In this document: piece by piece, positions 53,556 through 55,259 of the stretch
Layout of the letters: each line of letters opens with the position of its first letter
How positions within the stretch are numbered: the first letter of the stretch is position 1
NCBI GenBank assembly: GCA_038153405.1
Contig: JAYOYH010000011.1
Span: forward strand, 23,050-87,049
DNA length: 64,000 bases
Origin: Gemmatimonadota bacterium
Lineage (GTDB): Bacteria > Latescibacterota > UBA2968 > UBA8231
Direction: 5' to 3'
Position numbers and translations under genes: made by a program
The notes under the pieces: model-generated
What the model saw: only the letters and a program-made list of their open reading frames with translations
Told to the model about the DNA's origin: nothing
Database searches by the model: none

Positions 53556-53825
53556 TCACTCGCTGCGTTTTTCAATATGCGCCCGCACCAGTTTAATCAT
53601 CTCGCCATCCTCTGCGGCGGCGGCTACCATCGCCTTGAACTCTTCCACTGTGATTTTCACTTCCTCCAGGAAGCGCTGATCAGCCGCTCACGGAAATACG
53701 TAATCGCCAATGCGCCCCTCGTTGACCGCGCGCGCCTTGTCGGTGATGCGCGCCAACCAAGGGATATCGCCGATGACCATGCCGCGCGCGCGCGGCTTGA
53801 AGTCGAGAATGTCCCAATCACTCAT
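53556..53825 (-). CDS. DUF5069-like protein, candidate selenoprotein (Sec at codon 46)
   Basis: MSDWDILDFKPRARGMVIGDIPWLARITDKARAVNEGRIGDYVFP-[TGA 53690-53688]-AADQRFLEEVKITVEEFKAMVAAAAEDGEMIKLVRAHIEKRSE*; frame stays open 43 codons past the TGA; GGAG/GGGA RBS. Confidence 0.78.
53658..53675 (-). promoter_or_regulatory. Candidate bacterial SECIS hairpin
   Basis: CGCUUCC-UGGA-GGAAGUG, a 7-bp stem starting 12 nt 3' of the in-frame UGA. Confidence 0.6.
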
Positions 53826-53847
53826 GATTCCCTTTGCTCCTCGTGCA

Positions 53848-54879
53848 TTAATTCGATGTGAAAGCGGCGCGCATGTGGCATATATCCTCATCATCGCCCA
53901 ACGGCTCGCTCAGCGCGCGCGCAATGGCCTGCAGCCGTTCACACGGGTTCTGCCAGGCGCGCAGCAGCGCGGCATTGGCCGATTCAAGTGGATGCTCGAG
54001 CGCTTCGCACAGGGCCGCCGCCGCGTTGAGCAAGAAGGCAATCTGGTGTCCTTCCAGCGCGCGCACGACGCCTGAGTCACCGGTCAACTCAGCGTAGAAA
54101 CGGGCCGCACGCGCATTCAACACAGAGCGCACGACGCCGTTGCAGCGCCCGCTGCCCATGCTAGTAGTATACTGCACGATGCGGCGTTCCGTCCAGTCCC
54201 AGCTCAATTTAGAAAATTCGAGGAAAAATGCCGCACGCACCGGCGATATGACGATGTTGCGCGCGTTGTAATCGCTGCTGCCCAACACGGGCGGACGCCG
54301 CGCCAACTCGGAGCAGAGTGCGGCGATCAGATCGAGTGCGGCGCCGCTCAGCGGTGGGCACTGCAGATGACGCTGCAGCGCATGGCCCCCCCAGAGGGCT
54401 CGCTCGCTCGCCAACTGCCAGGCAACGAGCAGATCCTGCTGGCTACCGCCCGGCGCGACGCGCTGCGCCCACCGCTCGTCGCACATTAGCACACCGTCAA
54501 TGGAGCGCTGGTTGCGCATCACATCGCATGCCAACGCGGTATGGTCGCCACAACGCTCCTGCACCAGATCGTCTAGAGTTGCATCGCCGACCCACTCGTA
54601 GAAGGCGAAGCACGCCTCTGAGTCAAGGGCTACCATGGCTGGCACGCGGCAACCGGCTCCGCCCAGCGCGCACAGCACATCGCGCTCGACCTCCAATACG
54701 TCGTATGCTTTGCCGCGCGTCAGGGGGGCGAAGATATGATATTTGACAGCGCGCCTTTTGCCGTCGACGCACAGGCACCACACGCCCGAGTCGATCTCTT
54801 CAATGCGCTGGACGATGCCGCCCAATAGTTCGGGGACGCGTCGCCTGAGATAGGCATCCACCTCCCCGTAGGCTTCCAT
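53848..54879 (-). CDS. Aminoglycoside phosphotransferase / protein-kinase-like fold protein (atypical)
   Basis: AVK, VP.M, YEWVG, catalytic-loop-like SSDYNARNIVI, FFLEFS in place of DF. Confidence 0.6.
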   Translation of the reverse strand: MEAYGEVDAYLRRRVPELLGGIVQRIEEIDSGVWCLCVDGKRRAVKYHIFAPLTRGKAYDVLEVERDVLCALGGAGCRVPAMVALDSEACFAFYEWVGDATLDDLVQERCGDHTALACDVMRNQRSIDGVLMCDERWAQRVAPGGSQQDLLVAWQLASERALWGGHALQRHLQCPPLSGAALDLIAALCSELARRPPVLGSSDYNARNIVISPVRAAFFLEFSKLSWDWTERRIVQYTTSMGSGRCNGVVRSVLNARAARFYAELTGDSGVVRALEGHQIAFLLNAAAALCEALEHPLESANAALLRAWQNPCERLQAIARALSEPLGDDEDICHMRAAFTSN

Positions 54880-55259
54880 TAAGCGTCCTCGGCCTCGAAG
54901 ACGATGACCTGTGCGACGAGCTTGCCGGCTTGGTTATTGCGCTCGGGATGCTCGTTCATCGCAAAGAATATGACGCCTTCCTCTTTACAGATAAAATCGC
55001 AGCGCGCGCCGATAGCAAAAGCCTCGCCGCTGCCTATCCGCGCAATGAGCGCACCGACGTTTGCCCCCGGCATGCGATAGCCCTCACCGGCGGGAAAGCG
55101 ATAGAGCCCATCCGCGCCGCACCAGGCAATTTGGTCGCGCATATCGGGCGACCATGTCTCTTCGGCATCGACGACAATCCGCTGTCCTTGCTTCACGCGG
55201 ATCAGCGAGTCCTGCCATTGCGGACTCGGGCGTATTGTGCGCATAATAGTGACGGCCAT
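54879..55259 (-). CDS. LecA/PA-IL-like beta-sandwich (putative lectin)
   Basis: WQDSLIRVKQGQRI, TWS, WCGADG, PGANVGALIARIG, F.IG, G.IFFAMNE, N.AG.L; ATG 55259; TAATG overlap with the kinase gene. Confidence 0.6.
   Translation of the reverse strand: MAVTIMRTIRPSPQWQDSLIRVKQGQRIVVDAEETWSPDMRDQIAWCGADGLYRFPAGEGYRMPGANVGALIARIGSGEAFAIGARCDFICKEEGVIFFAMNEHPERNNQAGKLVAQVIVFEAEDA

Follow-up and report, generated by a model that had tools for sequence, protein, structure and literature searches.

A short DUF5069 gene with an in-frame UGA at a conserved cysteine position: a predicted selenoprotein family in Latescibacterota and Poribacteria

The locus and its read-through frame

The window analysed here is a stretch of 64,000 nucleotides (contig JAYOYH010000011.1, positions 23,050 to 87,049 of the forward strand, assembly GCA_038153405.1) from a bacterium deposited as Gemmatimonadota and placed by GTDB in the Latescibacterota (UBA2968; UBA8231). 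Its reverse strand carries a short DUF5069 gene that is interrupted by an in-frame TGA and preceded by a kinase-like gene (Table 1). The interruption is a confirmed observation. From the ATG at 53825 the frame runs through 45 codons to the TGA at 53690-53688, continues for 43 sense codons and closes at a second TGA at 53558-53556, which reproduces the 89-residue layout proposed in an earlier note on this DNA. That note also held that the frame fills the gap to the GT2 gene; the frame does extend to 53556, but about 120 nt are left before the likely GT2 ATG (53432). The GAGGAG motif lies within the 22-nt gap between the stop codon of the kinase-like gene and the DUF5069 ATG.

Table 1. Features of the short DUF5069 locus in window coordinates
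Feature	Position	Strand	Basis
DUF5069 gene of the short type, 89 codons and a stop; codon 46 is an in-frame TGA predicted to encode selenocysteine	53556..53825	-	
In-frame TGA, conserved Cys column	53688..53690	-	
Predicted bacterial SECIS hairpin, encodes R-F-L-E-E-V	53658..53675	-	
GAGGAG, Shine-Dalgarno-like, 11 nt before ATG	53837..53842	-	sequence; putative function
APH/choline-kinase-like gene, 343 aa, likely partner of short DUF5069	53848..54879	-	

With C substituted for U, the read-through protein scores 56 bits against the Pfam profile PF16798 (DUF5069), with E 6e-15 over positions 4-81 of 133, whereas the upstream half (22.3 bits, positions 4-37) and the downstream half (20.7 bits, positions 42-81) each fall below the curated cut-off of 27 bits; the family match claimed for the sequence beyond the UGA is thereby upheld. 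Compared with the full Pfam domain, the short subfamily is without positions 82-133. Contigs from the public runs X5 (depth 9.8) and X7 (depth 5.2), each belonging to a separate study, span codon 46 with identical letters, a comparison of contigs rather than of raw reads; a TGC or TGT at this codon was sought in both, and all read TGA. RNA runs X16 and X17 were considered as a source of expression data and set aside, as their contigs reach the gene ends only, leave codon 46 uncovered and may be DNA.

The predicted model of the 89-residue protein (pLDDT 77.4, pTM 0.70, alignment of 39 rows) has helices at residues 24-35, 47-55, 60-69 and 73-88, and residue 46, the sole Cys/Sec in the protein, directly precedes helix 47-55. 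A structure search of 48,161 chains based on the predicted model returned 3omd_B at Z 11.0 (rmsd 3.0 over 83 residues) and the next match at Z 4.5; the lack of any other fold above that value among these chains excludes nothing. PDB entry 3omd is the solved structure of an uncharacterised 145-residue protein from Leptospirillum rubarum, and the Cys of its Y-T-Y-N-C motif pairs with U46 (phmmer E 1.9e-6), so that it carries Cys where the short DUF5069 has the predicted Sec. Across 150 distant DUF5069 representatives R12, R26, D29, K30, R32, Y42, D49 and D73 are conserved, and the column of residue 46 is Cys in 102 of the 110 single-domain rows that have a residue there.

Codon 46 and the downstream hairpin across relatives

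Relatives were surveyed in 168 genomes of the phylum, with a strong match defined as E <= 5.1e-19 and nine weaker rows excluded. Strong DUF5069 matches were found in 119 genomes, all belonging to the same Latescibacterota class as the studied genome (132 genomes), and in none of the 36 genomes from the rest of the phylum; 104 of the 119 have one in-frame TGA and 15 have none. In the Poribacteria the short DUF5069 was matched in 168 of 176 genomes and, among the matches listed, 144 of 150 have an in-frame TGA and six do not. A conserved TGA followed by conserved coding sequence, looked for at the suggestion of the earlier note, is present in hundreds of genomes.

When the codon itself was read in fetched orthologous loci of the own group, the same column held TGA in 55 of 65 and TGC or TGT in the other ten, and the TGA is therefore not a product of chance. 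A set of 80 records, largely overlapping those 65 loci, yielded 63 TGA and 17 Cys codons, and 30 fetched Poribacteria loci yielded 27 and three. Throughout the short-type loci examined the column is exclusively TGA or Cys, never TAA or TAG, and every stop-free orthologue examined has Cys, in line with the proposal that the UGA occupies an expected Cys site. Among 80 distinct TGA genes the 30 codons after the TGA are free of stops in all 80, with D49, F52, L53 and F63 invariant.

Public protein entries handle the site differently: six of them (P0040, P0043, P0041, P0048, P0067 and P0072) have Trp at the position or end at the UGA, and searches of protein sets therefore miss the Sec form. In Cys-type short orthologues (alignments A1 and A5) another Cys is often present at about residue 71, one that the mostly Sec-type alignment A2 is without; judging from the alignments, this could be a resolving Cys. 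One Cys-type gene (L176), in a record titled Opitutales, groups inside the Latescibacterota sequences and has the kinase upstream, reflecting either transfer or bin mixing.

The domains of long DUF5069 proteins have 12 Cys vs 14 Ser in the same column. Multi-domain forms are mostly without Cys, and the fold therefore also has a Cys-free role. In the studied genome a 436-residue paralogue (G000:C9:65836-67095, L070) contains three DUF5069 domains, none with Cys (G-D-D-S instead), and triple-domain forms are common in the class. Some multi-domain genes are broken, by a frame change in L087 (genome G015) and by a TAA in L255. Cys-type DUF5069 domains also occur in fusions (P0088, P0127, P0147, P0059, P0138 and P0172) with cupin (three cases), methyltransferase, dienelactone hydrolase or DUF2249.

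The TGA is followed, after 12 nt, by a 7-bp stem with a 4-nt UGGA loop at 19 nt (-14.3 kcal/mol), a hairpin that the earlier note had overlooked. The bacterial SECIS model, as laid out in PMC13188914, calls for a loop of 3-9 nt with a G among its opening two nucleotides, a stem of 4-16 bp, a distance of 16-37 nt from the UGA and an MFE <= -7.5, and the hairpin agrees with it on all four counts. Folding energy was rejected as evidence for the hairpin (z +0.07 to -1.43 vs shuffles, not significant); since its stability is no better than that of shuffles, the support for the hairpin is its conservation. A 6-bp stem with a UGG loop is found in 44 of 45 distinct TGA sequences of the own group vs none of ten Cys sequences, and one stem pair is compensatory, C-G in 35 and G-C in 10 of the 45. 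In the Poribacteria a stem of at least 5 bp is present in 21 of 21 TGA sequences (at least 6 bp in 15 of them) vs none of three Cys sequences, so that the hairpin is absent from all Cys genes examined in the two groups (0/13).

Because the F-L-E-E peptide by itself imposes some of the stem, synonymous codon choice was checked. The 80 distinct TGA genes, which like the Cys genes are kin rather than independent trials, encode L53 as CTG in 80/80, E54 as GAG in 79/79, E55 as GAA in 77/77 and F52 as TTC in 78, whereas the comparison codon L24 uses five codons and F63 is divided 52/28. The 13 Cys genes are relaxed at these positions: F52 is split 7/6, L53 uses four codons and E54/E55 are lost. Genome-wide, a like hairpin follows 95 of 48,658 TGA triplets (0.2%) and TAG and TAA at the same rate, and the pattern by itself was discarded as a selenoprotein finder.

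A further group of TGA loci came from outside these two lineages. A 42-residue protein named Chloroflexota ends at Y-I-Y-P, and four related metagenome loci (L241-243 and L246) have TGA in the same column with an open, conserved frame beyond it and a different predicted hairpin, placed on V-L-G-E codons. The trees group these loci with Cys forms and keep them separate from the Latescibacterota-Poribacteria group. This suggests that the Chloroflexota-like clade may have acquired Sec independently, as a second origin; an AU test does not reject uniting it with the main TGA group in one clade (p 0.162).

Selenium machinery and the reading of the UGA

The earlier note had named selA, selB, selC and selD as genes to be confirmed in the genome. 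Three of them are present (selA, E 1.4e-141; selB, E 1.5e-101; selD, E 2.9e-106), the selD gene having its own in-frame UGA and a 7-bp hairpin, but selC was not found in the 93% complete assembly by Rfam, ARAGORN or a pattern scan; a relaxed ARAGORN match on contig C35 stayed unconfirmed. The gene occurs in four of seven genomes of the genus. The sister genome G002 has selC at a distance of 2.9 kb from sequence that corresponds to contig C27 from its first base on, and nothing in the studied assembly matches this 2.9-kb stretch. A 4,165-nt contig from run X2, which is maybe the source sample, starts from a joint on the selC side, continues into the C27 part and agrees with C27 in indels and one substitution, and X5 shows the same joint. 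On the grounds of this synteny and these joints, selC is probably unassembled, lying in the gap before contig C27, where about 3 kb are missing. In 61 genomes surveyed, selB accompanies the TGA form in 42 of 43 and the Cys form in six of nine; six genomes with selB use Cys, and selenium is thus dispensable for the short DUF5069.

Other genes of the studied genome have an in-frame TGA. An ArsC-family gene (G000:C45:22345, L373; U-x-x-S) and an AhpC/TSA-FlgD protein (G000:C51:30001, L374; U-x-x-C) have it at the active site, and both are known selenoprotein types. A small ORF (G000:C12:23640, L375) running to Y-F-G-V-P-T ends at a TGA beyond which 28 codons stay open and a hairpin with a GGA loop lies at 17 nt; it may be a further selenoprotein or may end at a plain stop.

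The short DUF5069 gene resembles SelB-dependent genes with an intragenic SECIS, as described in PMC13188914, in its UGA on a Cys position, 7-bp stem, 4-nt loop with G second, 19-nt spacing and the presence of selA, selB and selD. By analogy with established SelB biology, SelB would almost certainly bind the UGGA-loop hairpin 19 nt downstream and deliver Sec-tRNA to codon 46, while translation would stop at 45 residues if selenium were absent. In the predicted structure Sec46 would then stand before helix 47-55 of a four-helix DUF5069 core and, being the only Cys/Sec, would act as a lone nucleophile rather than as one of a CxxC pair; the model makes a single reactive selenol at this residue probable. 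We give the combined reading, UGA codon 46 decoded as Sec and Sec46 as a lone reactive residue, a probability of about 0.9. The recoding put forward in the earlier note is supported by the pairing of TGA with Cys, the conserved downstream coding and the presence of selA, selB and selD, and we infer that the conserved Cys/Sec of DUF5069 is redox- or metal-active.

A true stop, whether in a nonsense pseudogene, through an assembly error or between two small genes, is what gene callers assume when they end the gene at the TGA, and it would agree with the truncated public proteins that end in Y-x-Y/F-P (P0041, P0048 and P0180) and with the missing selC. It sits badly, however, with a column that is never TAA or TAG in the short-type loci examined, with 30 open codons and four invariant residues after every TGA, with halves that separately fail the Pfam cut-off and with the agreement of independent contigs, and is very improbable. 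Just as improbable is a non-Sec read-through, in which a reassigned code or a near-cognate tRNA inserts Trp, Cys or Gly. The W found at the site in database proteins P0040 and P0043 would fit such decoding, but most likely stems from the automatic use of another code table; UGA terminates the DUF5069 gene itself and many neighbours, ARAGORN at default settings found 42 tRNAs and none with a UCA anticodon, the genomic orthologues have Cys, not Trp, and the hairpin agrees with the SelB model and is present or absent along with the TGA.

DUF5069, very likely a selenoprotein family in its short form, is absent from the catalogues checked. PF16798 is not among the 119 selenoprotein families in Table 1 of PMC13188914, a table which includes the families of Haft and Tolstoy 2025, and NCBIfam 20.0 has no match to the DUF5069 selenoprotein at E <= 0.1. 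A full-text literature search for DUF5069 and PF16798 found no mention, with the proviso that Deng et al. 2026 (Cell Rep) may have the family among their candidates. The term DUF5069 was likewise not found in the consulted parts of PMC12013277 (four supplements searched) and PMC13326102 (one supplement searched) or in two supplements of PMC13745706; literature matches to '3OMD' were unrelated abbreviations. The remark in the earlier note that DUF5069 is not known as a selenoprotein family agrees with these searches. Set against the known SelB-dependent selenoproteins, the predicted short DUF5069 selenoprotein is all-helical and not thioredoxin-like and has F/Y-P-U-x-x-D in place of CxxU or UxxC.

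The kinase-like neighbour and possible roles

The upstream 343-residue protein itself has no Pfam family match. Nine of 48 homologues match APH (PF01636; best 1.2e-10), the profile of the kinase-like family matches PDB 8agy, a corramycin phosphotransferase, at 3.2e-9, and Atlas features of the gene point to APH clusters. K46, E65, D203 and N208 are invariant in 48/48 homologues, and from kinase motifs we take these to be the catalytic positions. The gene shares the invariant Lys, Glu, Asp and Asn with APH/choline-kinase-like phosphotransferases, whereas its DFG-like motif reads I/L-E-F; it likely encodes an enzyme of this type.

Of 30 family-level loci, 28 have the kinase directly upstream of DUF5069, and one is too short to tell. 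Each of the four Chloroflexota-like TGA loci (28% identity) has it there too, as do the Cys-type loci L244, L245, L247 and L248, of which L245 is in addition beside a gene named Bacillota. Eight of 80 metagenome loci have it upstream, exactly the short-type ones, and it was not found beside the 72 long or multi-domain loci. In families f2-f4, six f1 genomes and the fetched Poribacteria loci it is found elsewhere in the genome. Within the class both genes occur in 115 of 132 genomes and neither in ten (1.4 expected if independent), with 4 + 3 single cases, the four being fragmented assemblies; the corresponding figures for 176 Poribacteria are 164 both, six neither and 4 + 2 single. In 295 of 308 genomes the two genes are either both present or both missing, a count over kin that are not independent and with no control family as yardstick. 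Both are missing from the near-closed genomes G017, G042, G056 and G097. Two other lines of context were dropped: a kinase-DUF5069 fusion (0/27 kinase homologues, 0/20 longer DUF5069 proteins; weak evidence) and a downstream operon, where neighbours differ between lineages.

Directly upstream of the kinase-like gene lies a conserved gene of 125 residues (window 54882-55256, minus strand) with no Pfam match; it is beside the kinase in 15 loci of the f1 type, also where DUF5069 has relocated. Scattered redox genes are found near DUF5069 as well (L275, L277, L316, L085 and L204), encoding Fur-family, CCG-domain, HbpS-like and MarR/ADH proteins and a glutaredoxin-thioredoxin-reductase fusion.

Gene context makes it fairly likely that the short DUF5069 functions with the kinase in some form. 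The nature of this partnership can be proposed tentatively, from gene context only: the protein may be a redox-sensitive partner of the APH-like phosphotransferase and gate the kinase or the turnover of its substrate according to the redox state of Sec46. A selenoprotein acting alone, binding or detoxifying a metal or metalloid and linked to the kinase by shared lineage history, is somewhat less probable than this redox switch. It would explain why the genes are unlinked in f2-f4 and the Poribacteria, amid housekeeping neighbours (RsmD-like, pheA, UPF0182), and is in keeping with longer Cys-type relatives that are fused to cupin, methyltransferase or DUF2249 domains or have Fur, CCG-domain, HbpS-like or MarR genes nearby; the adjacency in three distant lineages, in both Cys and Sec forms, and the joint absence from the four near-closed genomes speak against it. 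Rather unlikely is a catalytic or carrier subunit that works with the kinase and whose Sec46 accepts, carries or removes a phosphoryl or other anionic group. The conserved R12, R26, K30 and R32 with D29, Y42 and D49 would suit an anionic ligand, a resolving Cys is absent and the Sec precedes a helix start, but the protein has no phosphatase-type motif, and the same charged residues are kept in Cys-free repeats and may therefore be structural.

A bolder extension of the redox switch would make DUF5069 and the kinase an undescribed two-protein module, in which a one-selenol switch controls a phosphotransferase and Sec arose on two occasions, each bringing a separate SECIS in the same helix; we consider this doubtful as a whole. 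If true, nearly all Poribacteria and nearly all members of one Latescibacterota class would have the module, and it would also occur in lineages resembling Chloroflexota and Bacillota. The predicted selenoprotein would add a non-thioredoxin, all-helical family to those of bacteria, and annotation currently splits or misreads a gene present in 168/176 Poribacteria and 119/132 genomes of that class. The many switches between Sec and Cys, at which the hairpin appears or disappears accordingly, provide clean natural material for testing SECIS rules. For DUF5069, a domain with a solved structure and no function, Sec would single out the conserved Cys as the residue that probably does the work, and the kinase that recurs next to the gene is the first concrete candidate for a partner.
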